Source: a virus (Duplodnaviria; Caudoviricetes). From it: a stretch of DNA of 53,552 nt. The notes beneath the pieces are model-generated. The model searched no databases and was not told the DNA's origin. It saw only the letters and a list, made by a program, of their open reading frames with translations. The translations under genes and the position numbers were made by a program. The DNA is taken from IMG/VR virus record IMGVR_UViG_3300046656_000217, positions 1 through 53,552 of that record, one strand, 5' to 3'. Positions 5,572-48,205 of this stretch are shown here, one piece after another (position 1 is the first letter of the stretch; each line of letters starts with the position of its first letter).

Positions 5572-5996
5572 CCGCCTTGTACCCTCCCGACGAACCGGAT
5601 CAATTCTACCCGGCCCCCGATCCGTGCATACGACACGACGTCCGGGGCCGGCGATCGGTTCGAACTGCACGGCTTGAGTTCCTGGCCGAGTATCCACACC
5701 ACCGCCGTTTTCTTGAGGTACTGTCGTCGCTTCGTGCGACCGCCTGGGTACTGCGGGACCGGCCGGCGGATGCGGCCACACGGCTCGGCGAACGACACGA
5801 CCACTCGCTCCCGACCGCCTTCCCACCTATTCTCGACCTTGCACAGTTTCTCGGCCTGCAACCTTTTGATCGCCCGTTCCAGATCCGGAACGACCAGACC
5901 GTACATGTCGCGAAGGTACACCCGCGTCCCGAAGGCGCGGCGTAGGCGGGAACACAACGCCCGCGGGCCGTAGAGTCTGGCGTCGATCTTCTTCAT
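5550..5996 (-). CDS. Hypothetical basic protein
   Basis: Start MKKIDAR overlaps upstream stop (ATGA coupling). Confidence 0.5.
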   Translation of the reverse strand: MKKIDARLYGPRALCSRLRRAFGTRVYLRDMYGLVVPDLERAIKRLQAEKLCKVENRWEGGRERVVVSFAEPCGRIRRPVPQYPGGRTKRRQYLKKTAVVWILGQELKPCSSNRSPAPDVVSYARIGGRVELIRFVGRVQGGWLVQPA

Positions 5997-29601: not shown

Positions 29602-30030
29602 ATGACGAAGCCGAATTACGAGACCATCGTTTTGCAAGTCGCCAACGTCGCGGTCAGTGAAGCCATTGACCGGCGGAAGTTGCTGATCGCCCGGAATCAG
29701 GTCGAGATCTTGGCCGCGATGGAGATGATGTCCGGGAATCTGGTCGTCTACCTTCAGGCGTATCTCGCGGCCGGGGATCGTCAGCAAGTCGGGGAGGACA
29801 CGGTCACCTACCTTGCCGACTGGCGTCAATGGTTCAAGGCCCGGTGGTTCAACAACCGGATGCTGCGGTGGCTACTGCGGAAGTACCCGCTGCGACACAA
29901 GACGATCAAGGTGCCGACGGTGTGGATCACCCGGGTCTGCCCGCACTTGGCAATCCCTGTCGGCAGCAACAAGTTCGAAATCCTGAAGCCGCACTTCGAT
30001 CATTGCCTCACGAAAGACCAACCGCGATGA
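29602..30030 (+). CDS. Hypothetical protein
   Basis: GAGG SD; coupled to recombinase. Confidence 0.55.
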   Translation: MTKPNYETIVLQVANVAVSEAIDRRKLLIARNQVEILAAMEMMSGNLVVYLQAYLAAGDRQQVGEDTVTYLADWRQWFKARWFNNRMLRWLLRKYPLRHKTIKVPTVWITRVCPHLAIPVGSNKFEILKPHFDHCLTKDQPR

Positions 30031-31094
30031 CCGAGCCCATCTACAACCAGCGGATCCGCCCCTTCACTACCCGGAGTCGGGCGGCGGACAAGCCGACCGG
30101 TACCCGGTGCTGGGGGTACATGCGGGTGAGCACCGACAAGCAAGTCGACGGGACGTCCCTCGAAAGCCAAGAACTCGACATTCGCCGCGAGTACGAGAAG
30201 TGGAAGAACACCCACACGATGATGGGCATTACGAAGGACGTCACCCCCGGCGGAAAGACCCGGTTCTGTGACCGGCAAGGCGGGCGGGAACTGCTCGGGA
30301 AGATGGTCCCCGGCGACGTGCTCATCATCTCCAAGGTCGACCGCTTCAGCCGGTCCGTGGTCGACGGGCTCAACGAGATGCGGGAGATCTGGCGGAAGGG
30401 GATCACGATCGTCTGTCTCGACATGGGCGGCGAGCCGGTGTCGTTCGGGGACAACGGCGAGATCCTGTTGTTCATGCTGCTCCTCGGGGCCCAAATGGAG
30501 AACAAGCGGCGCAGCGAGCGGTCGAAGGAATCCTGGGCCCGGGAGAAAGCGGCGGGGATCAAGCGGAAGCGAAGCCCGATCGCCAACCCGCCGTACGGGT
30601 ACGTGGGTGGGGTGATCGACTGGCACTGGCGGACGTTCGTTGTGCGATTACGCAACATGTTCGATTTCGCCTGCCGCAACCTCGGTTACTCGAAGTGCGA
30701 CACCCGGCACCTGAAGCTCGCCGAGAGGTACGGGCTGCTCTGGTGGAAGAGTTACAGCAAGACCGGGCCGAACGGTCGCCGGCCGGAAGCGATCTCGGCC
30801 GACTACTACCTGCGGTGGTTCCGGTGCGAAGACGAACTGTCCAAGACGCACCCGTTCGTGCTGAAGATCGAGACCCCGTGGGTGGAAGATTTCATCGCCG
30901 GTCGGCTCAAGCCACTGCCCAAACCAATAAACCCTTTCTTCAGTCCCATTAACTCCCCAGGAGAGAACGATGCTCTTGCAACAGTTAACGCCGACCGAAG
31001 CGGCCCGACAGATCCGGGAGAACCTACAGCGGGGGGAGGGCCGGGTGCAGACCTTCCCGGTCATGGTGCTCCCGGACAACACCCTGCACTCTGA
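30027..31094 (+). CDS. Serine recombinase (resolvase/integrase family)
   Basis: 'GYMRVSTDKQ...SLESQ', 'GDVLIISKVDRFSRS', 'PPYGY'; start re-called at MTEPIY. Confidence 0.85.
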   Translation: MTEPIYNQRIRPFTTRSRAADKPTGTRCWGYMRVSTDKQVDGTSLESQELDIRREYEKWKNTHTMMGITKDVTPGGKTRFCDRQGGRELLGKMVPGDVLIISKVDRFSRSVVDGLNEMREIWRKGITIVCLDMGGEPVSFGDNGEILLFMLLLGAQMENKRRSERSKESWAREKAAGIKRKRSPIANPPYGYVGGVIDWHWRTFVVRLRNMFDFACRNLGYSKCDTRHLKLAERYGLLWWKSYSKTGPNGRRPEAISADYYLRWFRCEDELSKTHPFVLKIETPWVEDFIAGRLKPLPKPINPFFSPINSPGENDALATVNADRSGPTDPGEPTAGGGPGADLPGHGAPGQHPAL

Positions 31095-32920: not shown

Positions 32921-32923
32921 GTC

Positions 32924-33418
32924 ATGGCGGTCTTATTCGACAATCTGAAGGTCGGCGGCTGGTACGCCATCTTCGAGCACAAGGAACAGGAAGCCGAGCC
33001 CAATCCGTACGATGCGTTCAACCTGTTCGCCAGGGCGCCTAAACGGCAGCGGTGCGACGGGATGCCGTTCATGATCCGGGCGGCGTCCTTCCCGTTCATC
33101 ACCGGGGTTGGACTGAAGGGTGAATTCCTTGCGTTCGATTTCCGAGAAGTACAGTTCGTCTCTCTCGACAAGAGGTACGTCAACGAGTGGTACAAGGCGG
33201 TGGCGTCGGCCTCGGGCCAGTTACCGCAAGGCCAGAGTTGCTTAGACGTCGCCCGGAAACACCTGCGGAAGCTGAAAAAGAAGAAAGAGAAACCGGACCC
33301 GAACACCTGCCCGCGGTGCGGCAGCCGAATGATCCAGAAGTTGCGGGACGTCAAGGACGGGTGGCGAATCGCCTGCCGCGAGTGTGGGATGGACGCCGGG
33401 CCGGCACCGACAACCTAA
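32924..33418 (+). CDS. Zinc-ribbon hypothetical protein
   Basis: CPRC...CREC; last plus-strand gene, convergent with virion genes. Confidence 0.6.
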   Translation: MAVLFDNLKVGGWYAIFEHKEQEAEPNPYDAFNLFARAPKRQRCDGMPFMIRAASFPFITGVGLKGEFLAFDFREVQFVSLDKRYVNEWYKAVASASGQLPQGQSCLDVARKHLRKLKKKKEKPDPNTCPRCGSRMIQKLRDVKDGWRIACRECGMDAGPAPTT

Positions 33419-36400
33419 CGCGCCGTCTGCTGCTCCAACTTGGCCCGGTCCTGCACCCGCTTGTCGGTCTCCTTCAGCAAGTCCAGCAAGTAACGAGTCG
33501 TCGGATCCAACTCGCCCCGGGTCTTCAACGGGGCGTACACTTCTTCCCGCGACTTGATCCCCGTGTTGCCCCGCAGTTCGTCCTTCACCAACTGCCGCGC
33601 GGCGAGATCCTGTTGGCGGGCGGTGTCAATGTCCGTGACGCGAACCCCGGTCCCCAGGTTGAACAGGGTCGACCCGATGCTCTTGCGCGGGTCGAAGAGG
33701 GTGTCGACGGTGTGCAGCGCCCGAGCGGCCGGCGAGTTCGACGCCAACTCGGTCGCCCCTCGGGCAATGTCGTCCGGGACGAGCCCGCCGAGCCCGAGCA
33801 CGGTGGACGGCTGAAGGTCTTCCAACTTCCGGCCCGAGTAAAGCTGGGTGCCGAACGCCTGCTCGAACGGGAGTTTGAAGAGCGGGTTCGCCTGACCGAT
33901 CCCCTGTTGGAAGGTGCGCTGGACGTCGCCCTTCAGGAACGAGCCGATCGTCTTCAGCGCCTCATCCTCGATCGGCAGACCGAACGACGAGATGTACCGC
34001 TGCTGTCCTTCGGGGGCCCCGGGGATCGGAACGCTCGCCCCCTCCCCCACGAAGGACGGGACGAACTGGCCGGGATCCCGGACGCCGCCGACGAGCCGGG
34101 TCGCCGCGGAGATCTGGCCGGGCTGGGTGACGAGATCTTCGAGGATCGGCGGGAGGTTCTTCCGGCTGAAGGCGTACCACGGGAACACCCGCTTCATGAT
34201 GTTCTTCTCGAACTGAGTCATGTCGGCGTAGTCGATCTGGTACTTCATCGTGGTCAGTTTCGCCTCGGCGGGCCCCATGTCGTGAAGCATGGCCCCCAAG
34301 AAGTGAGTGCCGCGGATCCAGTCCTCGGCCGTGTTGCCCATCTTCTCGCCCTGCTTGAACGGCAGGAACTCCGACCGCGAGCCCGAGCCCACCGGCCGGG
34401 CCAGACTCTCCAACGGGTTCAACTGCTGGAAGACCTTCCCCTTCTCGGGGATGAACCCGGCGCCGAACGTGGCGAGATCCTGTTTGAGCGGCCGGGGCTG
34501 CGCGGCGCCGACGTCCGGCAGACTGCCGGGGAGGAGTCCCGGCCGGCTGACCGCCTCGATCCCGCCGATCCGCTCCCCCACCTGGCCCGATCGGGTGAAG
34601 GCGACGTTGTTGGCGATCAACAGTTCCCGGAACTTCTTGGTCGCTTCCTCCGCGGTCTGGCCGGGGAACAGTTTGGTGATCGTCTCGTCCGACAGGGATC
34701 CGCCGCGGAGCACCCGGAACATGTCTTCGCCGGCCTGCTTCGAGAGCACGCCGGCCCGGCTCATGTTGAAGACGCCGGTCATGAGGTTCCGGACGTGGAA
34801 AGCCGGGAACGGGCTGGTCACGCCGCCCTTGAACAGACTGGCGAACCGATCCCACATGTCGACGACCGGCTTCAGCGACTCGGGCGTCGTCCACGCCTGC
34901 CCGATCCGGAAGAGATCCTTGGCCACGTCCTCGGGGATCGCCAGATCCTTGAGTTGGTTCGGGTTCACCCCGAGCCCGGCCGCGATGCGCTGGTACGACA
35001 CCGGCATCCGACCGCCGACCTTCTGGGTCATCCCGGCCTTCTCCAAGGCTTCCTTGAGCGGGACGGCTCGGACGCCGGCCTGTTGGAGTTGGGTGAGCGG
35101 CACGGCTTGCTGTGTGAGCCCGGTAATCATCGTCTCGCCCGACGCCACCGTCCGGGCCGACTCTAATTGCCTGGCCCGTGCATTCCCCAAGAAGTCGAAG
35201 TTGAACAACCCTTCCTGCCGGGTCTTGTCGGGGACCGCCTTCAGGTAGTCGGCCAGCTTCTTCGCCTGCTTGTTGGCCCCCTTCCACGCCGCGTCGCCCC
35301 ACGGCGTACCGACCCACGCCGCCGGCATACCCTGCGCGGCCGAGCGGCCGGTGAGACTCTGGACGATGTCACTCTGCACCTGAAGGTCCGACTTGAACGC
35401 GGTCCGCCCGGCGCCGGCCATCGTGGGATCCTTGATTAGCCCCTCGATCCCGGCCGTGCCGCCGGGGATGCCGCGGAACATCGGCGCGCGAGCCTCTTGG
35501 AACTGACTGCTCCCGGAGAGACGGGTCGAGATCGCCCGGCCGACGTCGCCCTCTGGGTTCAACGCGGTCCGGGGGAAGTAGTCCGTCGGGAACACCCCGG
35601 CCGGGAACGGCTCGGCCAGACCGGCAGCCTTCGCCTGCTTGTTCGCCAAGAGAGCCCACTGAGGCGTGTCGGTCGCCTCTTTCGAGACGACGCCGGCTGC
35701 CCGCTCGGCGCCGAGCGTCGCCCGGGTCTCGGTCGCCACCCGGTCGCCGATCGCAAGGATGTCTTGAACATCCTGCTGGTTGAACCCGAGCCCGAGCAAC
35801 TTCCCTTGGGCGTCTTGGGTGTACCCCTCGGCGTGCTGGGTGAGAGCCGTCCCGAAGTCGAGCCGCTTGTCGACCGGGATCTGCTTGGCGTAGTCGTCGA
35901 GCGGGGTGAGAGCCGACGCGAAGCGGGCTTCCGCGTCCGCGCGGCCCTGCTTCAAGAGGGGCGTGAACTGGTTCTCGGCGAGGGTCTGGCCCACCCGACC
36001 GCCGGCCTCGGCAACGCGTGTATCGAACAACTGCCGCATTCCGAGATAAGCCTTGTCCCCGAGATTGCCGAGAGCGGTCACCGGGTTGGTCCCGATCGCT
36101 CGCTGGATCGGTCCGCCGATGTACTTCTCGGCCCCGAGTGCCGCTTGGGTCGCCGGGTAGGTCACCGGCTTCCAGAAGTTCTCGGCGATCGCCTGGCCGG
36201 TCGCACCGGTGCCGACGATCTTCCGCGGGGCCCCGAAGAGGGTTTCCTGAAGCGGGATCCCGAAGTCCATCAAGCCGGCCTGCCCCTGGGCGATCCGCTG
36301 GGACAGTTTCGGGGCGAGCGTCCCGGCCCGCGCCGCCGCCTTCCCGCCCTGGGTGAGCGGCCCGATGCCGGCGTAGGTGAGCGGGTCGGTCGCAAGCTCG

Positions 36401-36804
36401 GTCAGAAAGCCGGCTGCCTGGTTCTCTAACGAGTCGTCGCCGCGGGTGGTGATCCCCAAGCTCGCGTTGATGTCGGACCCTTGGACCGCATTCCTCTCCT
36501 GGGTGAGCCCGATCGTGTCCGATCCCGGGAGGAACGACAGGAGTTCCGACGCCGGGGTGCTCCCGCCGGCCAAGAGGTTGAGCCCCGCGCGGACGGACCG
36601 GGCCGGCTTGTCGACCAGCTTGCCGAGATAGGAAACGCCGCCTAGCGATTGGTCGAGCATCCGGGAGAGGAAGTCCGTCTGCTCCTCGGGGGACTGGCCG
36701 GTGCCGGTGTTGTTCGGATCGCCAACCTGCTGCCGCTGGTAGGCGGCTCGACGGTAGGCGTCGGCCGCGACGGGGTCGAGGTAGTCAAGGAAGTCGGTCG
36801 GCAT
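33415..36804 (-). CDS. Large internal virion (ejection) protein, paralog A
   Basis: 1129 aa Ala/Gly/Gln-rich; end of tail operon; 'IDYADMTQFEKNIMKRVFPWYAF' typical of large ejection proteins; shares N-terminal module with paralogs B and C. Confidence 0.7.
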   Translation of the reverse strand: MPTDFLDYLDPVAADAYRRAAYQRQQVGDPNNTGTGQSPEEQTDFLSRMLDQSLGGVSYLGKLVDKPARSVRAGLNLLAGGSTPASELLSFLPGSDTIGLTQERNAVQGSDINASLGITTRGDDSLENQAAGFLTELATDPLTYAGIGPLTQGGKAAARAGTLAPKLSQRIAQGQAGLMDFGIPLQETLFGAPRKIVGTGATGQAIAENFWKPVTYPATQAALGAEKYIGGPIQRAIGTNPVTALGNLGDKAYLGMRQLFDTRVAEAGGRVGQTLAENQFTPLLKQGRADAEARFASALTPLDDYAKQIPVDKRLDFGTALTQHAEGYTQDAQGKLLGLGFNQQDVQDILAIGDRVATETRATLGAERAAGVVSKEATDTPQWALLANKQAKAAGLAEPFPAGVFPTDYFPRTALNPEGDVGRAISTRLSGSSQFQEARAPMFRGIPGGTAGIEGLIKDPTMAGAGRTAFKSDLQVQSDIVQSLTGRSAAQGMPAAWVGTPWGDAAWKGANKQAKKLADYLKAVPDKTRQEGLFNFDFLGNARARQLESARTVASGETMITGLTQQAVPLTQLQQAGVRAVPLKEALEKAGMTQKVGGRMPVSYQRIAAGLGVNPNQLKDLAIPEDVAKDLFRIGQAWTTPESLKPVVDMWDRFASLFKGGVTSPFPAFHVRNLMTGVFNMSRAGVLSKQAGEDMFRVLRGGSLSDETITKLFPGQTAEEATKKFRELLIANNVAFTRSGQVGERIGGIEAVSRPGLLPGSLPDVGAAQPRPLKQDLATFGAGFIPEKGKVFQQLNPLESLARPVGSGSRSEFLPFKQGEKMGNTAEDWIRGTHFLGAMLHDMGPAEAKLTTMKYQIDYADMTQFEKNIMKRVFPWYAFSRKNLPPILEDLVTQPGQISAATRLVGGVRDPGQFVPSFVGEGASVPIPGAPEGQQRYISSFGLPIEDEALKTIGSFLKGDVQRTFQQGIGQANPLFKLPFEQAFGTQLYSGRKLEDLQPSTVLGLGGLVPDDIARGATELASNSPAARALHTVDTLFDPRKSIGSTLFNLGTGVRVTDIDTARQQDLAARQLVKDELRGNTGIKSREEVYAPLKTRGELDPTTRYLLDLLKETDKRVQDRAKLEQQTAR

Positions 36805-36831
36805 GAGATCACCCCCGGGGATGGGGAGATC

Positions 36832-37938
36832 TTACCGCTGTTGAGAGGTTTCCGGGATACCGAGAGTGGATCCAAGCTGCATACCCGACCGGCCGAGCCG
36901 TTTCTGGTACTGCGGGGCCGACTGCCCGATCGCCAGCGCCTTCCGCATTTCTTCCTGCCCGCCCAACAGGTCGAGGAGGTACCGGGTCATCCGGTCCGGT
37001 TCCTGCACGGCCACCGACGGCGCCATCTGGCCGGCGAACGCGGGGATCGGCTGGTTCCGGGCTGCCATCGACGCGAACGGGGCGTCGTGCGTCGTCACCG
37101 CCCCCGGGTCGATCACCACCGGTCGGCCCTGGTACATGCCGACGTTGCCGGCGTGCCTGTCGAAGAAGTCGAGCCCGCGGGTGGCCATGTCCTGCTGCAT
37201 CCCGTGGTAGGCGTCGCGGACGCCCGGCATGTTCACAAGGGGAGTCGACGTCGACTCGCCGAAGGCCGGGGCGAACGGCGTGCGCTCGACGCGAAGGGCG
37301 TTCTTGTACCCGCCGCTGCCGGCGATGTCCGCCGTGCGGGTCGCGGGGAGGACGGCTTGGTCGATCGGCCGGGTTTCGCCACCGAGCGGGGAGAAGGACA
37401 TTCGAGACACGTCACCGCCGGGTGACCGGAACGCGACGGCTTCCGCGCCGCTGCCGAGATACTTGCTCCCTTCCGGGATCTCCTGCAACGCCTTCTCGAA
37501 CCCCGGGTGATTGGAGAGGGTGAGGAACTTGTCCCGGCCGAACTCCGGAAGGCTTTGGAAGAGTTCGGACCGCGTCGTCGCGTACCCGGGTCCGCGGGCG
37601 GCTGCCGCCGCTTCCGCCCCCTTGCCGAGTAACCGACCGCCGAGCCGGCCGGCGAAACCGCCGAGATACGTCGTCGGATCGGTCAAGATGCCGGTCGCGA
37701 GCCCGGCCAGTTCGTCGCCCGTCTCCGAACCAGTCGAGCCGATATGCCGCTTGAACAGGTCCGTACTCGAAATCGCGTTCTGCTGGTGGGTGGTCCCCAG
37801 CGTGTCGGAGAACGGGAGGAACGAAAAGAGTTCGGACGGGTCCGTGCCGCCGCCGCCCAACATGTCGAGCCCGGCCCGAGCCGCGCGGCCCGGCTTGTCG
37901 AGCACGTCACCGATCCAGCCGAGTGCTTCATCGAACAT
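36832..37938 (-). CDS. Internal virion paralog B with protein-kinase-like cargo domain
   Basis: Shared N-module; 'YLGSGAEAVAF', 'DRHAGNVG', 'VVIDPG'. Confidence 0.65.
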   Translation of the reverse strand: MFDEALGWIGDVLDKPGRAARAGLDMLGGGGTDPSELFSFLPFSDTLGTTHQQNAISSTDLFKRHIGSTGSETGDELAGLATGILTDPTTYLGGFAGRLGGRLLGKGAEAAAAARGPGYATTRSELFQSLPEFGRDKFLTLSNHPGFEKALQEIPEGSKYLGSGAEAVAFRSPGGDVSRMSFSPLGGETRPIDQAVLPATRTADIAGSGGYKNALRVERTPFAPAFGESTSTPLVNMPGVRDAYHGMQQDMATRGLDFFDRHAGNVGMYQGRPVVIDPGAVTTHDAPFASMAARNQPIPAFAGQMAPSVAVQEPDRMTRYLLDLLGGQEEMRKALAIGQSAPQYQKRLGRSGMQLGSTLGIPETSQQR

Positions 37939-39316
37939 TGGGGAATCCCTCTCTCGCCGTCTGGTAACTCGCGAGCATCCCGAGCCGGGATGCCGCCGCC
38001 CGCGCCATGGACGGGGCCGAGACGTTGGCCGGGATCGGTGCTTCCGGTGGTGCGATCCACGGCGAGTAGATCTGGTTCTGGTCGAAGACGACCCACTGAC
38101 TACCGGTCGATCCTTCGTGCGGAGCGATCACCGAGTCGTACCCGTGTTCCTTCAGGGCAGCCAGGTACTTCTCGGCCGTGCCGTACGGCGCGTCGGGATG
38201 CGGCTTCGAAAACCGTTCCTTGAGAATGTCGTACGGTCGGTTCGGATCTGGCAATCCCATACCTTCTTGGAGTTTGGTGAGGACCGGGTGCAAGTTCTCC
38301 TCACCGTATCCAGTTCCCCGTAGGTCGAGCGGCTTGCGAACGTCGAGGTATTGCGTTCGCACGCCGGCCGGGTTTTTTAACATGTCGTCGAGTTGCTTCA
38401 TCGCGATCGAACCACGCATCTCCGGGTCGTGCTTTTTTCTGAGATCGTCGATTTGGTAGTAGAGATTTCTCCTGCGGGAGTCCAACAGACCCTCTTGTTC
38501 GGCATGGGCCGGATCGATCGTCGAAGAATACCCGTACCCGGAATCGTGTGGGGTTTTGACGAACTTGGGATTCTCGTAAAGGTACCGCAAATCGTCGGTC
38601 GTGACGCGGTGTTCATGCCAAAGCCGATTCACCGTGTTGTTGGCTTCCTCTGCCGCCGCGTCCATTGCTTCACGCGATCCGCCGAACGCTTCGAGTCCGG
38701 GCTTCGCCTTCTTCAACATGTAATCGACTTGTTCAGACGATGGTCCGGCGTAGCTGCTGGCAAGCTCGGCGTCCGGGGTGACGTAGTACCCGGGGCCGAG
38801 TGTTGAAGCGTCCGCCGTCCCGGCCCTGGCGAAGTCCACCGGCCCTTCGAACGCGGTCTTGGTCCCGTGGTACATCTTGACCGGGTTGCCCGCCGCGTCC
38901 TTGGCGAACGTCTGGCCGGCGATCTCGGCCGGCATGGCACCCTTGGCCAACAGGGATTCCCGGAGTGCGTTGACCGCCTTGGCGCTGGCGATCGCCTCTT
39001 CGTTGGTCTTCACCGCCCTGGAAGCCACCCGGGCGGCTTTCCCGGCCGCACCGAGCCCGATGAGGTTGGTCGGGTCGAGGGCCATTTCCAGCCCGAACCC
39101 GGCAGCCTGGCCGCTGGCGTCCTCGGGCGACAAACCGAACCAGTCGTGTGCCAGATTGGCACCCGAGACCCGGCGGGACGGGTCGGTCAGACCCATAGTG
39201 TCGGAAAACGGGACAAGTGCCGCCAATTCGTCGGGATTTCCGCCAAGTAGACCCCGGAAAGCCCGGCCGGGCTTGTCCAAGGCGTCGGAAAGGTATGAGA
39301 GGGCTTCGTCGAACAC
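37928..39316 (-). CDS. Internal virion paralog C with ADP-ribosyltransferase-like (ART-PolyVal-type) cargo domain
   Basis: Shared N-module; 'MYHGT', 'GPGYYVT...ASSYA', 'YLDVRKP', 'GYDSVI...QWVVFDQNQI'. Confidence 0.7.
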   Translation of the reverse strand: MFDEALSYLSDALDKPGRAFRGLLGGNPDELAALVPFSDTMGLTDPSRRVSGANLAHDWFGLSPEDASGQAAGFGLEMALDPTNLIGLGAAGKAARVASRAVKTNEEAIASAKAVNALRESLLAKGAMPAEIAGQTFAKDAAGNPVKMYHGTKTAFEGPVDFARAGTADASTLGPGYYVTPDAELASSYAGPSSEQVDYMLKKAKPGLEAFGGSREAMDAAAEEANNTVNRLWHEHRVTTDDLRYLYENPKFVKTPHDSGYGYSSTIDPAHAEQEGLLDSRRRNLYYQIDDLRKKHDPEMRGSIAMKQLDDMLKNPAGVRTQYLDVRKPLDLRGTGYGEENLHPVLTKLQEGMGLPDPNRPYDILKERFSKPHPDAPYGTAEKYLAALKEHGYDSVIAPHEGSTGSQWVVFDQNQIYSPWIAPPEAPIPANVSAPSMARAAASRLGMLASYQTAREGFPNVR

Positions 39317-39408
39317 GGGCTTTGCCCTCCAAGGCGTCTATAAGGCCGGCTGGCGCGTCGGAAGTTTTGACCCGGCGGATGGTCCCCGGGGCCGAGATCG
39401 TGGCTTGG

Positions 39409-40890
39409 CTAACGAAGGCCGAGACCGAACGCCTTGTAGACGGACGGGTATTTCGACCGCCGGAGTTCCCGGGCCCGGTCGAGTTCGGCCTGGGACTGGC
39501 TGAACGGGTTGAGCGGGTTCGACTCGTTGCCGCCGGCCCCGAACGGACTGGCTGCCCCGATGTCGAGTTCCGGTCCCTCTTTCAACTGCACCTTCCGGTA
39601 GGGGTCCGAGCCAACCCCGAGCGGGATCCTGCCTTCCTTGGCCAGATAGTTGAACGGCGTACCGGCCAGCGTGAACGTGCCCGGGATCTGGCCCTGTTGG
39701 TTGAGCGGAACCCCCCACTGAGTAGGTCCGTTCTTATTCGCCGACCGGTGCGCGGACATTTCGTCGATCGCGGCTTGCTGAAGGAGTGCCTTCTTGACGT
39801 TCGCTCCGGCCGGGCTGGCTTGGATCCGATTCAGAATGGCGTCCATTTCGTCGGGTGCCAGGTTGGCATCGGCCATCGCCTTCAGGAGCGGAGAGGCGTT
39901 CTGCTGCTGGAAGTCCTGAACGCCACCCTTGGCACCGGGGATCATCTTGCGGTCGGCCCCGAGCCCGCCGCCCATCTGCATATCGGCCGGCAGGACACCG
40001 GCATTTGACGAGAGGAACTGTTCGATCTTCGACAACTGCGCGAGCGACGGCTGGCCCGGGGCCGGAGCACCGCCCTTGTCGACCGTCATGGACTGGTTCG
40101 GTCCACCCAGGTTGAGGAAGTTCCCCGCCACCGAACTACCCGGGAACGCGCTCCGCACTTCCTTCGAGGCGGCGAGAGCCTGTTGAATGCTGGTCGCGTC
40201 CAGCCGGCCGGATCCGCCGAGCGCCCCGAGCAACGTGAGCAACGTCTGGCCCTGCATCGCGTCCGGGTGGAACTTCAGCGAGGCTTCCTTCAGCCGGGCT
40301 TCGTTGTTCATCTGGGCCACGTCGCGGGCGGTCTGGCCCTGCATCGTCTCGGGCAGGATCCCGACCTGGGCCCCGAGCATCCGGTTCGCCGCGTCGCCGC
40401 CCATGTTCGGGGCGTTCGCCTGCTGGTCGAGGAAGAGTTGCCGGATCTGATCCTTCGGCGAGCCGCCGGTCGCACCCCCAACGCCCGCCGGCAGGGTCGA
40501 GCCCGCGTTCGCCATCTTGGTCCCCCAGCCCGAGTACCAGTTCCCGGGCTCGGCCGTGCCGTTCAACGTCTGGACGGATCCACCCAAAGCCGGCGACGGC
40601 GCCAGCCCCGGCAGATCGCCTCGGACGTCGTTCTGAGCCTGCGCGGTCTGATCCGGCACGTTCCGCGGCATCCCGGCGACGCCGGAGTAGGCGCCGCCGC
40701 CCCACAAGCCGCCCGGCAGCATGGACGCGGCCATCGCCCCGGTACCGGCGATCGAGGCCGGGGCGTTGAGCCCGGGACCGAAACCCGGGACGCCGAGCCC
40801 GGCGGCAGCCATCCGCTTCTTCCGCTCCTCTTCGTCGTCCGGCTGCATGAAGCCGGCGTACGGGTTGTAACCTTCGGGTCGCGGGTCCAT
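39409..40890 (-). CDS. Internal virion (ejection) protein
   Basis: Gly/Ala/Gln/Met-rich low-complexity protein in ejection module position. Confidence 0.6.
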   Translation of the reverse strand: MDPRPEGYNPYAGFMQPDDEEERKKRMAAAGLGVPGFGPGLNAPASIAGTGAMAASMLPGGLWGGGAYSGVAGMPRNVPDQTAQAQNDVRGDLPGLAPSPALGGSVQTLNGTAEPGNWYSGWGTKMANAGSTLPAGVGGATGGSPKDQIRQLFLDQQANAPNMGGDAANRMLGAQVGILPETMQGQTARDVAQMNNEARLKEASLKFHPDAMQGQTLLTLLGALGGSGRLDATSIQQALAASKEVRSAFPGSSVAGNFLNLGGPNQSMTVDKGGAPAPGQPSLAQLSKIEQFLSSNAGVLPADMQMGGGLGADRKMIPGAKGGVQDFQQQNASPLLKAMADANLAPDEMDAILNRIQASPAGANVKKALLQQAAIDEMSAHRSANKNGPTQWGVPLNQQGQIPGTFTLAGTPFNYLAKEGRIPLGVGSDPYRKVQLKEGPELDIGAASPFGAGGNESNPLNPFSQSQAELDRARELRRSKYPSVYKAFGLGLR

Positions 40891-40931
40891 GAGTCACCTT
40901 TCCAAAAGCGGACGGATACCGGCCGGGATCT

Positions 40932-41555
40932 TTACACAAGGCCGGCGAGTTGAGCCAGCAACCCTTGGACGCCCTGCATCTGGGTCTGCCGGCGGCGGAT
41001 GTCGGTGTCTTCGCCCTGGGCCCACTGGTTCTCGGCCAAGGCGTCGGTCCGGTACGTCGAGTCGGCGTTCGCCTGGGCGTACTGCATCGGGAGTTCCCGG
41101 GTGGTCCGGGCGTTCTCCCCGATGTTGGCGATGCCGAGTTGCGTCATCTGCGCCTGCATGGCCGGGCTCGACCCGCCGAACCCGCGGCCGGCACTCGACG
41201 AGCCGAGTTGCCGCATGAGCGTCTGGTACCGGGCATCGTTCCCGGCCACCCCCGAGTTGACTTGCTGCTGGATCTGGTCCGGGGTGAAGATCGGCCCCCG
41301 GGTGATCGACGGCTGCGGCTTGGTCGCCCCGCCGACCTGTCCGAACTGCCCGAGCATCGACGTCGCGTACGGGAAGAGTTGGTTGAAGGCGCCCTGCTTG
41401 GCGGCGAACTTCGCCTTGTCCAAGTCCATCGTGTCGCCAAATTCCTTCTTCCTCTGCTGCAACGCCATGTAGGCGTCCGGATCCGAGACCGGCGTGTTCG
41501 AATAACCCATCCGGGCCCCGAGCGCCGGATTCGCCCCTTGAAACAACATCGGCAT
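40932..41555 (-). CDS. Small internal virion (ejection) protein
   Basis: Gln/Gly-rich, 'AGRGFGGSS' pattern typical of DNA-transfer proteins. Confidence 0.6.
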   Translation of the reverse strand: MPMLFQGANPALGARMGYSNTPVSDPDAYMALQQRKKEFGDTMDLDKAKFAAKQGAFNQLFPYATSMLGQFGQVGGATKPQPSITRGPIFTPDQIQQQVNSGVAGNDARYQTLMRQLGSSSAGRGFGGSSPAMQAQMTQLGIANIGENARTTRELPMQYAQANADSTYRTDALAENQWAQGEDTDIRRRQTQMQGVQGLLAQLAGLV

Positions 41556-41614
41556 GATTTACTCTCCCAGCGTTGCGGACAGTTTACCACGATAAGACAG
41601 GAAAAGGAGAAGCG

Positions 41615-42370
41615 ATGCCCGACGCCAACGGAAATCTGATCCCCGGTGACCCCACCCCGACGGCTTGCACCAAAGTCGGACTGATCGTTCCGGGACTGCT
41701 AAAGGACGACGGCGGGGTCATCGCCCGGTCGACCGCCCACCCCGAATTTCATGGCCGTGTGTGGACCGCTTCGTTCGTCCTCGGCGAGTTCCGCGACGCA
41801 CTCAAGGCGGGCGGCTTGGACATTTGCAACGAGTCGGAGATCGCGGCCGGGAAGACCTTGAGCCTGTCGATCAAGAAGTTGCCGGTCCTGGCACCCGTTA
41901 CCTACGTCACCGATTACTCCGCACAATCGGCGTCGCCGTTCCCGATCGTCCAAATCGTACCCGGCTGCAACGTGGTCGGCATGATCGGAGTCGATCCCGG
42001 GTTTCCGCCGTTTCACCTGCCCTTTTGCAAGATCAACGCGATGGGATACGCGGCTTGGCGTGTCATCAAGTCGATCAGCACGGAAGGGGGCCCGTTCGTC
42101 CAGACGATCATTCTCTCGGGGACGGTCAGCCTGACGACCGGCGAGTGTCTTGCCCTGCCGGCCAGCGTCTTCGACAGTCGCGTCGCGATCGGTGCGCCGA
42201 CCGGCTTCCTTCAGGCTTTGGTCATGTATCACGTCCAGCTTTCCGGCGACGGAACGACGTGGGACGCATTGCCGACGTCGTTCTCGCCACCGTTCCCCCC
42301 GCGCAACTGCGCCCTCGGGAGCGGCGGCGATCCGTGCCCGACGCACGGGCCCGGTAGTCCGTGGCACTAA
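41615..42370 (+). CDS. Hypothetical beta-rich protein in opposite orientation within the virion operon
   Basis: AAGGAG SD before MPDANG; fills the gap between minus-strand genes. Confidence 0.55.
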   Translation: MPDANGNLIPGDPTPTACTKVGLIVPGLLKDDGGVIARSTAHPEFHGRVWTASFVLGEFRDALKAGGLDICNESEIAAGKTLSLSIKKLPVLAPVTYVTDYSAQSASPFPIVQIVPGCNVVGMIGVDPGFPPFHLPFCKINAMGYAAWRVIKSISTEGGPFVQTIILSGTVSLTTGECLALPASVFDSRVAIGAPTGFLQALVMYHVQLSGDGTTWDALPTSFSPPFPPRNCALGSGGDPCPTHGPGSPWH

Positions 42371-42915
42371 GGCAGGTAAATGGGGACCAGCATTCGGAGC
42401 GAAGTGATCGCGTTCCCGGCACCGATCGCGCACCAGACGAGACAGTGTGTTCCCGCGGGGATCGTCTCGGCCGGGTCGATCTGCCCTTGGAAGCACGGGA
42501 AGGTTCCGAGCGGCGTCCCGCTCGTCGGATCGGTGATCCAACAGAGTACGTTGTAAGTCTGCCCGCTCCCGGAAACCACGATGCCGTAGAGCATGACCGG
42601 GAACTGCGGGGCGAGCGCGGCCGGCGGGGGCGTCGACGGGAACGTCGTCTGGGCCGGCGGCAGCCCGCCCCCTCCCCCGCCGCCACCGCCGGAGAACGGC
42701 GGCACGGTCGCACCCGGGAATGGAACGATGGTAAGGGCCGGGACGTCCGGCGCCGTCTGGCGGATGGTGAGCGGCCCGTCGACCGTCTGCCCGTCGGGGT
42801 GCTCGGCCCCGAAGATCGAGATGAGGTTTTCGGCCAACCGGCGTGCGCCACCCGGCCCCGGGTACTTCTCCCGGAGAATGCTGTCGAGTTCTTCGTCGGT
42901 GAGGATCGACGCCAT
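42367..42915 (-). CDS. Putative tail protein with Gly/Pro linker
   Basis: Start re-called at MASILT, coupled to nozzle gene stop. Confidence 0.55.
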   Translation of the reverse strand: MASILTDEELDSILREKYPGPGGARRLAENLISIFGAEHPDGQTVDGPLTIRQTAPDVPALTIVPFPGATVPPFSGGGGGGGGGLPPAQTTFPSTPPPAALAPQFPVMLYGIVVSGSGQTYNVLCWITDPTSGTPLGTFPCFQGQIDPAETIPAGTHCLVWCAIGAGNAITSLRMLVPIYLP

Positions 42916-44981
42916 TACCCGTTCGCCCCGTTGACCAGAACGCTTCCGATCTGAACCTGCTCTTCGTTCGACACTCCGCTCATGACGAGCCGCGCCGTGC
43001 GGCCCATCGCACCGGCCACCGAGCCTTCCCGCCAAGAGTTCTGCTGGACGAGCGTGTAACCGTCCACGCTGTCGAGCAAGATGTCTTGGCCCTGGTCGCC
43101 GATCTTCGCCTGCACGTCGGTCCGGAAGCCGCGGTCGATGTCCCACGCCATCTTCACCGGGTCCGAGAAGTCGGGGGCGAACCCGACCCGGGCCTTGTTT
43201 GGCACCCGGTTCGGCTGGAACTCCATCTCGACACTCCGGGCCATGTCGGCTTCACCCGGCACCCACCGCAGCCGTTGACTCGAATACGTCCAGACGATTC
43301 CGCCGAGACAATACCGCGACGTCTCGTCGGGCCGGACCCGCCACGGGGTATTGATGACCAGCCGCGTCGTCGTCCGCTCGACGACGTACGCCGACTGGCC
43401 CCGGCCCTTCCCCTCGGTGATCGACACCGGCGAGTTGACGCACCCGGCCGCGAATCGGGCGTTGGCGTCGGTGATGCTGACGTCGTCGGCCGACGTGACG
43501 CTGCCGCGGATGGTCCCGCCCTGGGGCGAGCCGTCGATCGCCGCACCGAGCGGGGCGTACACCCGACCGCCCGTCGACCCGACGTAATACTGCTCGATCC
43601 CCTCGGCCACGGTCCCCACCCGCCCGCCGATCCGCGAGAGCACGCTGGATGCCGCCCGGAACGGGAGTGATTCGGTCCAGATCTTCCCCAGCTTGTAGGC
43701 GAAGCAGATCATGTCCCGGGGAACGTAGTCGCCGGCCAAGGCCACGAACCAGCGGACAACCTCTTCGTTCGGCGAGTGGCACGCATGGAAGTACCGGCCC
43801 GCCGCCCAATTAATCTTCTTCCCGGTCCCCGGCTGGTTATTGAACATGTCCTGAATCGGCGTCGAGATGAGTTCACCCTGGTCGTCACCGCGGAAGGCGT
43901 GAATCCCACCGGTGTCCATCATGTAGCACGTCTCGTCCACGATCGCCCACGACCGGTTGTTGACGCACCCGATGCTCGCCGCCAGGAAGATCCGACCGTC
44001 GTTCGCCGGGTCGCTCCGGCAAATGAACCGGTAGAGATGCCGGGTTTTGACGATGTACAGGTAAGACCCGTAGTTGAAGGCGCCGACCACCCGGTCACCG
44101 TCCTCGGGGAGAACGAGCACATTCACCGGGTTCCACGCCTCGGGCTTGTCCGGCTCGGAGAACTGGAAGGCGTTGGCCTCGGCCGGGACGGGCCGCACCG
44201 AATACTCGCCCCACGGGTTCGACGTGCCGCCGTAGACTTCGGACAGGAAGATCTGTTGGGTCGTCTCGTTGACGCTGGTGATCGTGTAGTTCTTCGGGGC
44301 CCCGGTGACGTACAGGATGCGGCCGACGAACGTCTCCTTCCATTTCGTGTTGTACCCCTGGACGATCTGAGACCCGAGCGTGACCGAGCACGACCCCCGC
44401 TGGTACGGCTCGATGCCCAACAGGTACATTCGGTTCTGGTGCCAGATCAAGAACGGCTTGTAGGACGGTGGCACCCCGTTTTCGATCGCTGCTTGATCGA
44501 TGTCGACCGACTCCTGAGTCGAGAGATCCGGATCTGTACGAGTGCTGGTGAAGGTCGTTGAAACAATGTCGGTCGTATCGATGTCGACATAGGCGATGTT
44601 CCTCGTCTCGCCGGTAAGGGGATCGACCGACCCGACCGACCCGTTGGTATTGCGGATGATCTGACGCCCGACGACGTCGTTCATGAAGAAGGGGACCGGC
44701 ACGTTGATGTAGTCGATCTGCCCGTTCGCCGAAGCGCTGGCCGGCGCGGAGATCGGGGAGAGGTTGGAGAACTGCCCGCGGCTGTTGACGAACCGAACCC
44801 ACCCGTAGTACGTCCCGGTGATCGAGCCCGCCCCGGACGCCGACAGGTCGAGGGCCCCGACCGGGGCGACGACGCCGGCCGGCGCCGCCGTGGACGACAA
44901 GCCGTCCCAGACAAGAACCTGCTCGATGCCGTTGGCGATGAAGACGTTCCCGTCCGACGAACTCTGTGCGAACGATTCCAT
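42915..44981 (-). CDS. Tail nozzle / tubular protein B-like (beta-propeller)
   Basis: 688 aa beta-rich; 'FSEPDKPEAW', 'IGCVNNRS', 'ISTPIQD' patterns typical of P22 gp10/T7 gp12-like proteins. Confidence 0.7.
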   Translation of the reverse strand: MESFAQSSSDGNVFIANGIEQVLVWDGLSSTAAPAGVVAPVGALDLSASGAGSITGTYYGWVRFVNSRGQFSNLSPISAPASASANGQIDYINVPVPFFMNDVVGRQIIRNTNGSVGSVDPLTGETRNIAYVDIDTTDIVSTTFTSTRTDPDLSTQESVDIDQAAIENGVPPSYKPFLIWHQNRMYLLGIEPYQRGSCSVTLGSQIVQGYNTKWKETFVGRILYVTGAPKNYTITSVNETTQQIFLSEVYGGTSNPWGEYSVRPVPAEANAFQFSEPDKPEAWNPVNVLVLPEDGDRVVGAFNYGSYLYIVKTRHLYRFICRSDPANDGRIFLAASIGCVNNRSWAIVDETCYMMDTGGIHAFRGDDQGELISTPIQDMFNNQPGTGKKINWAAGRYFHACHSPNEEVVRWFVALAGDYVPRDMICFAYKLGKIWTESLPFRAASSVLSRIGGRVGTVAEGIEQYYVGSTGGRVYAPLGAAIDGSPQGGTIRGSVTSADDVSITDANARFAAGCVNSPVSITEGKGRGQSAYVVERTTTRLVINTPWRVRPDETSRYCLGGIVWTYSSQRLRWVPGEADMARSVEMEFQPNRVPNKARVGFAPDFSDPVKMAWDIDRGFRTDVQAKIGDQGQDILLDSVDGYTLVQQNSWREGSVAGAMGRTARLVMSGVSNEEQVQIGSVLVNGANG

Positions 44982-46678: not shown

Positions 46679-47179
46679 TTACTCCCTAATGGTCAGAATG
46701 TACGTTCCGGAGATCACGTCCAAGTTGGCGACCGCCAGGCCCGCCGGCATGACCGCCGTACAGTAGAGCAAGCCGGTCGGACTCACCGACCCCTTGGTCA
46801 CAAGCGAAGCCAGGAACGCCCCCCGGATGCTGCCGCCCGCGTTCATCACCCAGCTAAACGGTCCCGGGGTCGACATGATGCCGCCCGTCGCCGGGCCGGG
46901 GATCCAAGTCGGTCGATTCCCGACGTAGTTCGTCCACTCGTTCCAGCCGCCGTGCGCCGCGTGCGTGTCCGCGGTCAAGACCCCGGTGTAACCCGATTGA
47001 GAAATCACCCCGACGTAGTAGAGCGTCGGGGCTTGCCCGCGGAAGGCGGTTTCGAGGATCCCGTTGCACCCCTGGGTCGTCACCCCGTTCGAGATCGTCA
47101 CGCGCCACTTCTGCTTACCGGCCGGCGAGCGACAGGTCAGTTCGAACCAGCCGCCGACACCGAGCCGGTTGTGGGTCAT
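46679..47179 (-). CDS. Tail structural protein (paralog of 47179-47736)
   Basis: 'VGGWF...ADTHAAHGGWNEWTNY...RPTW'. Confidence 0.65.
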   Translation of the reverse strand: MTHNRLGVGGWFELTCRSPAGKQKWRVTISNGVTTQGCNGILETAFRGQAPTLYYVGVISQSGYTGVLTADTHAAHGGWNEWTNYVGNRPTWIPGPATGGIMSTPGPFSWVMNAGGSIRGAFLASLVTKGSVSPTGLLYCTAVMPAGLAVANLDVISGTYILTIRE

Positions 47180-47736
47180 TAGCTGCTCGGTGTGAGGGTG
47201 ATCCCGTAGATGCCCGAAAGCGTCGACCCGTTGGTCACCGACCGGGTCTGAAGGGCCGTCGCCCACAACGTCCCGACGTTACCCGGGCTCTTGTTGGCGG
47301 TGTCCGTGACGAGCGTACCCGCCAAGGTGGCGTCGGCACTGATCGCGTAGGTGAACACCGTCGAGTTCACCATCACCCCGCTCGCGGCAGCCGTCGGCGT
47401 CCACGTCGGCCGGGTCGTGCCGGTGTAGGACGTGAACTCGGCCCAACCGCCGTGCGACGCCATCGTGTCGTTGACCGACACCCCGGAGAACGCCGTGCTG
47501 TTGATGAGCCCGATCTTCCAACTGGTGATCGGCGTGCCCGAGTTGAACATCACTTCGAGCATGTAGTTCAACCCGACGTACGTCGCCGTGTTGTTGAAGA
47601 ACTGCTCGTTGATCCGCTCGCCGTTGGGGCCGTCCTCCCACCACCGGAACCAGCCGCCGACGCGCATCCGCGTCCGGCCGTTCTTCTTGCCGAGCAATTC
47701 CCAAAGCCGCTGAATGATCCGTTCACGGGGGCTCAT
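47179..47736 (-). CDS. Tail structural protein
   Basis: 'VGGWF...NDTMASHGGWAEFTSY...RPTW'. Confidence 0.65.
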   Translation of the reverse strand: MSPRERIIQRLWELLGKKNGRTRMRVGGWFRWWEDGPNGERINEQFFNNTATYVGLNYMLEVMFNSGTPITSWKIGLINSTAFSGVSVNDTMASHGGWAEFTSYTGTTRPTWTPTAAASGVMVNSTVFTYAISADATLAGTLVTDTANKSPGNVGTLWATALQTRSVTNGSTLSGIYGITLTPSS

Positions 47737-47738
47737 AG

Positions 47739-48137
47739 CTACCTCGGGTTCTTGCGACGGCTGATCGTGCCGGCGTCGGTACTGGTGAGAAGGTAACGGG
47801 CGTCCGGACGGGCGACCGCGAACATCGAAATGATCGTCCCGGCCGGCTTCCCGCCGCCGACGAGTTCGAACGAGCCGGCGATGAGTTGGGGGTCGCCGTC
47901 CTGATCCGTCCACCGGACGAACACGAAATGCCGGCCCGCGTTCGGGTAGAGCGTTCCAAGGAACTCGACGTACCGGAAGACGCCGTGAGTCACGGTCGGC
48001 TGGTAGGACGCCATCAAGGCGGACAGGAGTTTGACCGGCGGGGTGCCGTCCCGGAAGATCTCGATGCGGGGACGGAGATCGGGCCAGTCCGGCACGTACG
48101 CACTGTTCGACGTGCGAATCGTGACGTTGAGATTCAT
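47739..48137 (-). CDS. Hypothetical virion protein (start uncertain)
   Basis: ORF in tail operon. Confidence 0.5.
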   Translation of the reverse strand: MNLNVTIRTSNSAYVPDWPDLRPRIEIFRDGTPPVKLLSALMASYQPTVTHGVFRYVEFLGTLYPNAGRHFVFVRWTDQDGDPQLIAGSFELVGGGKPAGTIISMFAVARPDARYLLTSTDAGTISRRKNPR

Positions 48138-48205
48138 CCCTTGCTGGAACCGGCCACAATACACGACGGACTCCGGGTCCGTCGTTGGCGCGTCGGTGGC
48201 TGATT

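Follow-up and report, generated by a model that had tools for sequence, protein, structure and literature searches.

A shared N-terminal module joins a large putative ejection protein and two small enzyme-like proteins in an uncultivated phage

The 53,552 bp linear sequence IMGVR_UViG_3300046656_000217 from IMG/VR (here termed the window and analyzed over its whole length) has an estimated completeness of 82% (CheckV) and is probably from an uncultivated, short-tailed (podovirus-like) phage. The last three genes of its minus strand block, A, B and C, encode proteins that share a segment near the N-terminus, the module. What does such a segment do when it is found on one large putative ejection protein and also on two small proteins, one of which is a predicted ADP-ribosyltransferase (ART)? 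The answer favored here, with a probability of roughly 0.55, is that the module is a tag that loads B and C into the virion. The genes and the copies of the module are as follows.

Gene A, 33415..36804, minus strand: 1129 amino acids (aa), read as a gp16/gp26-type ejection (internal core) protein
Gene B, 36832..37938, minus strand: 368 aa; module, Gly-rich linker, minimal kinase-like domain and C-terminal helical tail
Gene C, 37928..39316, minus strand: 462 aa, GTG start; module, conserved linker and ART-PolyVal domain with an insert of ~120–150 aa
Module copy in A, 36367..36660, minus strand: residues 49–146, after a leader of ~48 aa and before a low-confidence linker at residues 178–215
Module copy in B, 37654..37938, minus strand: residues 1–95
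Module copy in C, 39029..39316, minus strand: residues 1–96, a short variant

The module and its distribution

A first-pass annotation of the window, made from the sequence alone, had proposed that three adjacent genes share a module of ~100 aa. This is borne out at a length of ~95 aa, with pairwise BLASTP E-values that range from 2e-19 to 5e-11. Positions 49–146 of A and 1–93 of B display 44% identity (E-value = 2e-19), positions 57–160 of A and 6–101 of C 35% (E-value = 5e-11), and positions 1–115 of B and 1–113 of C 37% (E-value = 1e-17). The three-way alignment has 24 invariant columns, which include the motifs DKP.R, P.SDT.G.T and DP. A search of the window with B shows exactly three copies of the module, and past the module A, B and C have no significant mutual similarity by BLASTP. 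In the structural model of A the module (about residues 40–145) has predicted local distance difference test (pLDDT) values of 76–91, and the linker at 178–215 falls below 50. A folded N-terminal domain is common to the gp16/gp26-like protein and to the small enzyme-like proteins. No Pfam or PHROG model covers this domain; PHROGs give no matches for A and B, and none for 25 metagenomic module proteins except for the ART part of one.

A module profile built from the three window copies and searched against 1.84 billion cluster representatives gives 924 matches at E ≤ 1e-3, 530 at E ≤ 1e-10 and 2 at E ≤ 1e-30. An exhaustive profile search was required, as a word-indexed homologue search with the B module found nothing; a module pattern scan across viral contigs gave 0 loci. 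Size classes and families were drawn from the best 150 of the 924 matches. These comprise 79 proteins of 240–700 aa where the module is nearly always at residues ~1–100, 57 proteins of at least 900 aa where it is at ~32–180, one protein of 724 aa, and 13 probable fragments of less than 240 aa. The bearers thus fall into two length classes, A-like proteins of ~1000–1670 aa and short proteins of ~250–660 aa, and the module is a genuine, widespread N-terminal domain. P0085, one of the 57 (3346 aa, 23 matching stretches, DUF1036), looks unrelated and was omitted from the families and the tree described below.

The sequences that follow the module in 80 short proteins (the 79 and window B) were clustered by blastp at E < 1e-5 over at least 50 aa. 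There are 26 B-like proteins, 17 of a family termed fam2, 14 of ART type (C included), 9 of a family termed fam4, and 14 singletons. Pfam searches with 78 short proteins show ART-PolyVal in 11 at E ≤ 1e-3 (7 of them above the cut-off) and a sub-threshold VapB-like match in one; 66 have no match. Members of fam2 have invariant Trp, Arg and Gln residues. The fam4 sequences carry a RHExxHG motif, exact in 7 of the 9 members, which is a lead to a zincin-type peptidase; according to the sections available of PMC5512222 this is the commonest domain of polyvalent proteins. Among 30 long relatives there is a single case of an enzyme domain within an A-like polypeptide. This is the metagenomic protein P0164 (1671 aa), where an ADPrib_exo_Tox domain (R-S-E type) is located at positions 473–616, between the module and the A-like body (24.9 bits, cut-off 23.4).

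The first-pass annotation had named a profile search as one check on its proposal, and a module never joined to other cargo as one result that would speak against it. The profile finds the module in front of a large A-like body in some proteins and, in others, in front of several C-terminal families that have no relation to each other; at least four of these families recur, and the proposal therefore stands on this point. Its description of the system as polymorphic holds in that the set of short paralogs differs between related genomes. It does not hold in the stricter sense, as the cargo families are few and recurrent and consist of complete genes, not silent cassettes.

A module hidden Markov model (HMM) matches an A-like open reading frame (ORF) in 14 of 18 related viral loci (L numbers below). 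Short module ORFs are found in five of the 18, two in L004 and one each in L005, L006, L015 and L017, and these are always directly upstream of the A-like ORF and on the same strand. In L005, L006 and L024 the short ORF is B-like. An 8.4 kb contig of a Fimbriiglobus (Planctomycetota) metagenome-assembled genome also has such a pair, with the A-like gene after the B-like one. This is taken as no more than a hint of the host (a lead to Gemmataceae), since the binning of a short contig is weak evidence.

The neighboring late genes that bear on the position of the module bearers are the following two.

207-aa protein, 40932..41555, minus strand: gp14-like by position and size only; kept in L006 and L009
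493-aa Gly/Ala-rich protein, 39409..40890, minus strand, directly upstream of C: gp15-like by position and size only

The gene order on the late strand is 207 aa, 493 aa, C, B, A. Podophage ejection genes form a small operon of a gp14-like gene (181–240 aa), a gp15-like gene (431–982 aa) and a gp16-like gene (609–1337 aa), in that order, as given in parts of PMC8954989. The window sizes of 207, 493 and 1129 aa fit these ranges; A is the last and largest of the cluster, with C and B placed between it and the gp15-sized gene. In L006 and L009 the 207-aa and 493-aa genes likewise precede an A-like gene in that order. The 493-aa gene is conserved upstream of the A-like gene in L006, where ten upstream virion genes have a matching order and are followed by a B-like and then an A-like gene. 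The position of module bearers within the ejection-gene cluster is conserved. The 493-aa protein has no Pfam or PHROG match, and a homologue search with its gene gives just two matches, both near-identical.

Shine-Dalgarno-like sites precede the starts of A (GGGGGTGA) and C (GGAGGG), and the C and B reading frames have 11 nt in common. Within 32800–41800 no site resembles a promoter or a terminator. B and C are probably co-transcribed within the late operon.

A FastTree tree was made of 162 modules (96 A, 26 B, 17 fam2, 14 ART and 9 fam4; singletons, fragments and P0085 omitted). It requires 24 changes of cargo label, whereas 200 shuffles need 62 on average and never fewer than 56. Among the short families even the biggest pure clades have just 2–6 members, which points either to low resolution of a 90-residue domain or to repeated exchange. 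Length variation within the module is more telling. The stretch from DKPGR to FSDT is 27 residues long in all 17 fam2 proteins, in 23 of 26 B-like and in 13 of 14 ART-type proteins. A longer variant, RAGL(D/N)(M/L)L.GG.TDPSEL.SFLP, is found in window A and three proteins closely related to it (P0004, P0005, P0007), and in window B and P0052. P0052 is the closest relative of window B, and these two account for all but one of the long variants among the B-like proteins (3 of 26). Window A and P0004 also have DKP.R as in the short proteins, not the DKTFGGR that is usual in the A family. The module of window C keeps the short form. Thus A and B of this lineage, with a common indel variant, share lineage-specific module features, a sign that the two copies may be coupled in function.

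The proteins that follow the module

Protein C was described on first pass as ART-like, and this is confirmed by a match above the Pfam cut-off and by an H-Y-D triad. The match is to ART-PolyVal (PF18760; Tox-ART-HYD2-like clade) with 41.3 bits against a gathering threshold of 31.2 (E-value = 3.4e-10).

ART domain of C, 38057..38899, minus strand: residues ~140–420, with H150, Y178 and D394

The residues H150 (in YHGT), Y178 (in GxYxT) and D394 (in GYDxI) are invariant in all 14 C-family members; their assignment to strands 1, 2 and 5 is by order along the sequence, not by structure. A His/Tyr/Asp active site on strands 1, 2 and 5 is described for the ARTs of polyvalent proteins in section 9 of PMC5512222. 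Most C-family members, C included, have an insert of ~120–150 residues within the ART domain. This insert is absent in P0154, which matches the PF18760 profile nearly end to end. From its sequence C is a predicted ART-PolyVal ADP-ribosyltransferase.

The part of B behind the module displays motifs of a kinase.

Kinase-like core of B, 37084..37491, minus strand: residues ~150–285, with LGSGAEAVAF, R179, E218, FDRHAGN and VIDPG

In the 26 B-family sequences the loop LGxGxEGxAF has invariant G162 and G164. The motifs F-x-D-x-H-x-G-N (D260, N265) and V-I-D-P-G (D277, G279) follow, and these residues, as well as E218, are at least 90% conserved. The spacing D-x-H-x-G-N-x11-D is the same as in E. 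coli SrkA residues 200–217. About 40 residues past VIDPG a C-terminal helix follows, so B has no kinase C-lobe. Kinases without a C-lobe are described for polyvalent proteins of PVC and Bacteroidetes phages in section 10 of PMC5512222. The B-family profile matches only NleH1 in PDB, with an E-value of 1.3 that is not significant, and the aligned stretch is the catalytic loop. Similarly, hhalign of B with E. coli SrkA gives a non-significant probability of 0.35%, and the best segment is again the catalytic loop. ESM Atlas neighbors of B are OspG-type and Ser/Thr kinases (scores 0.81–0.83, template modeling (TM) score ≤0.45) and are leads only. On the motifs, a kinase-like fold for B is fairly likely.

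A short word near the C-termini of A and B, TRYLLDLL, had also been pointed out on first pass and is present in both.

TRYLLDLL in A, 33475..33498, minus strand: residues 1103–1110, within the terminal helix
TRYLLDLL in B, 36964..36987, minus strand: residues 318–325, part of the B-family motif P-x(5-6)-LLDxLGG

When the non-module part of B was shuffled 1000 times, no shuffle shared an 8-letter word with the A body; the maximum was 7, in 3 shuffles. A profile of the B-family C-terminus matches none of 169 other proteins at E ≤ 10, and a second shared domain was rejected on this result. TRYLLDLL is therefore a real short shared word and not a demonstrable second domain; it is taken here to be a brief helix motif common to both proteins, and a loose P-x(5-6)-LLxxL pattern is found at this place in both families. 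The C-termini of the B family (B ~313–330) and of the C family (consensus SPLLAALGG) both have a Pro-x(n)-LLxxL-G-G/S-like motif, and the A family has P-x(5-6)-L.LL(K/R) at the equivalent relative place. A common helix or a processing site may lie behind this, or it may be chance.

Gene A encodes the largest of the three proteins. Its 49 homologues are 620–1976 aa long and have no Pfam domains; none of LPD or effector type is recognized in A or in 40 A-family members. An Atlas lead to LPD38 for A (score 0.95) was not confirmed by Pfam in these 40 members.

Body of A, 33418..36087, minus strand: residues ~240–1129, conserved across the A family

Near-invariant residues of the body include R672, N673, D858, Y859, E866, R936 and E946. 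The AF2 model of A, made from a 64-sequence alignment, has a mean pLDDT of 84.6 and a predicted TM score of 0.83 and is almost all-helical; from ~240 the pLDDT is mostly above 85.

The first-pass term for A was a large ejection-type body. Fold neighbors among podophage core proteins agree with this, as does the context, and the matches to solved structures are in the grey zone. The top row of a Foldseek comparison of A with PDB is the T7 core protein 9jyy_I, at a best E-value of 0.23 that is not significant. A second look with VIA-align shows T7 9jyy_I (gp16) with a Z of 8.2 over 222 residues (rmsd, root mean square deviation, 6.0; model positions 267–846), which is less than the ~13 attainable by chance with helical models. 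T7 7eyb_I (Z 6.8), PhiM1 8vb2_A (Z 6.7), E1004 9vvp_W (Z 6.4) and A4 9k3a_A (Z 4.0) follow. These five, all of them podophage core or ejectosome proteins and derived from four phages, are the only solved chains that align over more than 180 residues (187–227). The remaining rows cover the terminal hairpin only, and the wide search is dominated by the C-terminal helical hairpin at 1060–1129. The argument that A may be an ejection protein is the coherence of the match list and not any single score. No significant PDB match came from sequence searches with A, B or C alone or with the A-family profile.

Among predicted viral structures (BFVD), A has 67 matches at E ≤ 1e-3. Many are proteins of uncultured phages that are named for a large polyvalent protein associated domain, and some come from the C-terminal end of proteins that bear the names ART-PolyVal-like, zeta toxin, helicase or LPD38. 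The matches also include a 1114-aa protein of Anabaena phage A-4L (gene 26) that is labeled a tail protein (E-value = 6.9e-7, TM score 0.34). By cryo-electron microscopy A-4L gp26 is an outer-layer component of the pentameric pre-ejectosome within the A4 capsid, as reported in the part available of PMC12002296. The ordered N-terminal 92 residues of A-4L gp29 were considered as a counterpart of the module and rejected (hhalign probability 0.4%). On fold and context taken together, A is probably a gp16/gp26-type ejection protein.

Cultured phages also carry the A-like body. A tblastn search with residues 619–996 of A finds gp37 of Microbacterium phage Shocker, which the A model also matches in BFVD, and a 1783-aa protein of Cellulosimicrobium phage DS1. 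Here the A-like body makes up the last third of a protein of 1743 aa (Shocker) or 1783 aa (DS1) encoded by the last structural gene before the lysis genes. A partial module (the AGFG..DP..Y part) is found near residues 142–201, with E-values of 1.5e-3 and 8.4e-6, respectively, in a small search. Both proteins (loci L022 and L023) belong to phrog_36598, of unknown function. In loci L015, L016 and L017 the A-like proteins are 1954–2270 aa long and have ~1000 extra residues between the module and the body. The extra residues have no Pfam match and may be unknown effector domains within the polypeptide.

A possible role in cargo loading

The proposed mechanism has the following steps. The late operon would end in an ejection-protein cluster, that is, the gp14-sized gene, the gp15-sized gene, C, B and A, where A would be the large gp16/gp26-type protein of the internal core (pre-ejectosome). 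The helical module of ~95 residues near the N-terminus of A would dock its bearer to the internal core or incorporate it there. It could bind a common partner with several sites, such as the gp15-sized protein or the portal, or could co-oligomerize with A. B and C carry the module at the extreme N-terminus, and it is therefore proposed that they co-assemble into the capsid core and are expelled into the cell together with A and the DNA. Early in infection C would ADP-ribosylate, and B would phosphorylate, macromolecules of the host or of a competitor, B acting as a minimal protein-kinase-like phosphotransferase without a C-lobe. Virion incorporation by way of the module, ejection, the targets and the activity of B are all put forward here as parts of this proposal. 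The same enzyme classes are joined directly to A-like bodies in other phages, in P0164 and in the BFVD neighbors.

Several results weigh against this reading. The short paralog is absent in 11 of the 16 assessable loci (2 of the 18 end at a contig edge), so the paralogs are accessory. B-like and C-like proteins are known from sequence alone and have no cultured relative. As to B, the first-pass term kinase-like stands with respect to its motifs (GxGxxG, DxHxGN, IDPG) and does not stand with respect to profile matches: none of the 26 B-family members matches a Pfam kinase family at E ≤ 5, and PF06293, PF18762 and PF22303 have no match in the window at E ≤ 10. Where a kinase would have its beta3 Lys, 15 residues past the Gly loop, B has an invariant Arg (R179), and the single-sequence AF2 model of B (pLDDT 42) is unusable. 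The families fam2 and fam4 have no significant match in Pfam or in a PDB search with family profiles. As to A, Foldseek gives no PDB match at E ≤ 1e-3, the VIA-align Z values are within the range of chance for helical models, no hydrophobic transmembrane-like segment was found, and the sequence-profile comparison of the A family with A-4L gp26 is not significant (hhalign probability 1.3%, a local YFPR stretch only). Lastly, no terminase or portal is recognized by PHROGs and Pfam among the scanned ORFs of the window, a record that is 82% complete, and the podovirus assignment for this reason rests on context.

Two other explanations are each considered unlikely. According to the first, the module is a structural piece of the ejectosome, either a tape that binds gp15 or an oligomerization element like the N-terminal part of T7 gp16, and B and C are channel subunits that act in the envelope or periplasm. 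The part of T7 gp16 in question binds gp15 and forms part of the periplasmic tunnel (in the sections available of PMC8954989). The location of C and B between the gp15-sized and gp16-sized genes would fit, and B-like genes are the commonest partners of A-like genes (L005, L006, L024). The lineage-specific indel shared by the A and B modules would also be expected of parts that fit one partner. However, ART-PolyVal and kinase-like domains require NAD or ATP, which are cytoplasmic cofactors, and a search for a signal peptide or transmembrane-like segment found none. Moreover A stands alone in most related genomes, so B and C are not needed to build a channel.

The second, of about the same low probability, takes B and C as late enzymes that are not packaged. 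Here the module would bind the partner of A in the producing cell, where B and C would modify or chaperone core or capsid proteins or regulate A. Paralogous binding domains can target an enzyme to an assembly intermediate, and B and C are in the late operon and are probably co-transcribed. Against this, ARTs and kinases of these kinds are documented or predicted as head-packaged effectors in the accessible text of PMC5512222 and PMC9503650. In addition the ART of P0164 is within an A-like polypeptide, and BFVD neighbors join ART or zeta toxin to A-like bodies; these fusions argue that such enzymes travel with the body.

That the short genes are only recombination cassettes or decaying partial duplicates of the 5′ end of A, functionless or serving to diversify A as in polymorphic-toxin loci, is very improbable: small cassette-like ORFs do occur near large polyvalent genes (section 10 of PMC5512222), there are signs of module exchange between A and B, and with 24 label changes the cargo families are not monophyletic on the module tree, but the short genes are complete with their own start and intact frame (and an SD-like site before C), the B-like, ART, fam2 and fam4 families are each conserved over many genomes with invariant catalytic-type residues, and cassettes are usually without the N-terminal trafficking part, which is precisely the part retained here.

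The packaging-tag reading has parallels among known phage systems. Head-packaged effectors behind a common virion-targeting part are already established for T4 Alt, MuF fusions and polyvalent proteins (PMC5512222, PMC9503650, as far as available). What appears to be new is the module itself, its use on separate small proteins that share it with a gp16-like protein, and the B, fam2 and fam4 families, which are invisible to current libraries. Literature searches on ART-PolyVal, polyvalent proteins, the pre-ejectosome and ejection proteins with ARTs in podoviruses brought up no account of such a module, although a nameless domain is not searchable by name.

The closest comparison is with polyvalent proteins, defined by Iyer et al. 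(2017; PMC5512222) as large single polypeptides with 2–15 effector-type domains. Likenesses are the ART family of C (PF18760 with an H-Y-D site) and the active-site-like motifs of B, which is without the C-terminal subdomain as are the polyvalent-protein kinases of that source. The genes are also among late or virion genes, the A model matches models named for a large polyvalent protein associated domain, and one A-like protein (P0164) has an ART in the same polypeptide. However, C consists of the module and one ART, and B of the module and one kinase-like domain, which does not agree with the definition; the window enzymes are separate small proteins, each headed by the N-terminal module of A. 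No LPD, MuF or MPTase Pfam match is found in A, B, C or 40 A-family members, and B does not match PF18762.

MuF-domain polymorphic toxins and head proteins of the SPP1 gp7 type similarly have a conserved N-terminal domain for virion incorporation and interchangeable enzymatic C-termini, and delivery with the DNA has been proposed for them. The window proteins differ in that no Phage_Mu_F match is found in A, B or C (E ≤ 1) or in 78 short relatives (E ≤ 1e-3). The module is ~95 aa, compared with ~250–300 aa for MuF, and is shared with a gp16-like ejection protein, whereas MuF is a portal-associated head protein.

The gene order and sizes resemble T7 gp14-gp15-gp16 and A-4L (A4) gp26-gp29, and A is likewise large and all-helical. 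The layout of early genes that converge on the late strand is also similar to that of A-4L. Unlike these, the window proteins have no sequence-level homology to T7 or A-4L proteins, A is without a lytic transglycosylase domain, and neither phage has small paralogs that share the N-terminal domain of the large protein; the module HMM finds nothing in A-4L.

In T4 the capsid targeting sequence (CTS) of this myovirus is a cleaved peptide of ~10 residues. Like the proposed system, T4 packages an ART (Alt) and small proteins (internal proteins IPI-III) into the head by means of a common N-terminal element and injects them with the DNA. The element in the window differs from the CTS in that it is a folded domain of ~95 aa that is also present on a structural ejection protein. 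Alt is a head-packaged ADP-ribosyltransferase injected with the DNA (PMC5512222 and PMC9503650, in the parts available). It is of the R-S-E clade of ARTs, and C is of the H-Y-D type.

With regard to B, the kinases OspG and NleH and those of APH/SrkA type have D-x-H-x-G-N followed by [IV]-D about 11 residues on, as does B, and like OspG and NleH it is small and without a substrate-binding C-lobe. The differences are the Arg in place of the beta3 Lys, matches that are insignificant (E-value 1.3; probability 0.35%), and the lack of a match to PF22303 and PF06293.

A wider form of the proposal is that the module is an undescribed, widespread cargo-loading system of short-tailed phages, in which bearers co-assemble with the gp16-like core protein and enter the host with it, phage lineages swap the enzymes, and module copies within a genome are gene-converted. 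This is more doubtful than the packaging of B and C in the window and is offered tentatively. The swapped enzymes would include the H-Y-D ART, a new kinase family without a C-lobe, the HExxH protein and at least two unknown families.

Enzymes injected with the DNA can disarm or reprogram the host ahead of phage gene expression. The selection of cargo for packaging is known in few systems, namely the T4 capsid-targeting sequence, MuF fusions and giant polyvalent proteins. Here the unannotated module appears to do this for separate proteins. It is common to small enzymes and to the large ejection protein in a phage group that is little known and mostly uncultivated, and it offers a concrete way to test how cargo enters the podophage core. 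It also ties the bodies of polyvalent proteins to structurally characterized ejectosome proteins, and it indicates at least three effector families that are unstudied, one of them kinase-like and invisible to current HMM libraries. The cultured phages Shocker and DS1, with an A-like body and a partial module, are possible experimental entry points. Should the module be a cargo-loading system, it would serve as a transferable tag by which heterologous proteins could be packaged into phage heads, and the minimal kinases would gain a new branch in the B family.

Genome layout and neighboring genes

Early and replication genes (helicase, Erf, exonuclease, methyltransferase and resolvase, by Pfam and PHROGs) are on the plus strand at ~12–33 kb. 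The minus strand is the late strand and holds the virion genes, and the A, B, C block is located on it behind these genes. Related contigs are 56–72 kb long, and a portal and terminase may lie in the missing part of this genome. Two of the virion proteins are the following.

Major head protein, 1987..3120: phrog_9953
688-aa virion structural protein, 42915..44981, minus strand, upstream of the block: phrog_511 internal virion protein (E-value = 9.3e-8) and phrog_3287 virion structural protein (E-value = 2.9e-4)

The 688-aa protein is kept in loci L005, L006, L009 and L019. Between it and the 207-aa gene, a 265-aa ORF (41573..42370, plus strand) lies on the opposite strand within the minus strand virion block. 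It has no Pfam or PHROG match and may be a moron or a spurious ORF of high GC content.

The virion block also encodes a 605-aa protein (48741..50558, minus strand) with a Peptidase_S11 D-Ala-D-Ala carboxypeptidase domain at residues 112–266 (E-value = 1e-15). Its C-terminal part matches phrog_3545 (E-value = 3e-31), and it is possibly a virion-borne cell-wall enzyme. Adjacent and partly overlapping ORFs of 326 aa (47179..48159, minus strand) and 195 aa (46679..47266, minus strand) both display phrog_8123 in the C-terminal ~140 residues. They constitute a second tandem paralog pair of the structural block, and both are kept in L006 and L009.

Upstream of the head genes, an ORF at 4936..5826 (minus strand) has a sigma-factor-like C-terminal part (phrog_351, E-value = 5.6e-16). 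A serine recombinase (29829..31094, plus strand; phrog_125/phrog_95) with a Resolvase N-terminal domain (E-value = 8e-22) is found at the end of the early block and hints at a temperate or invertible-segment lifestyle.

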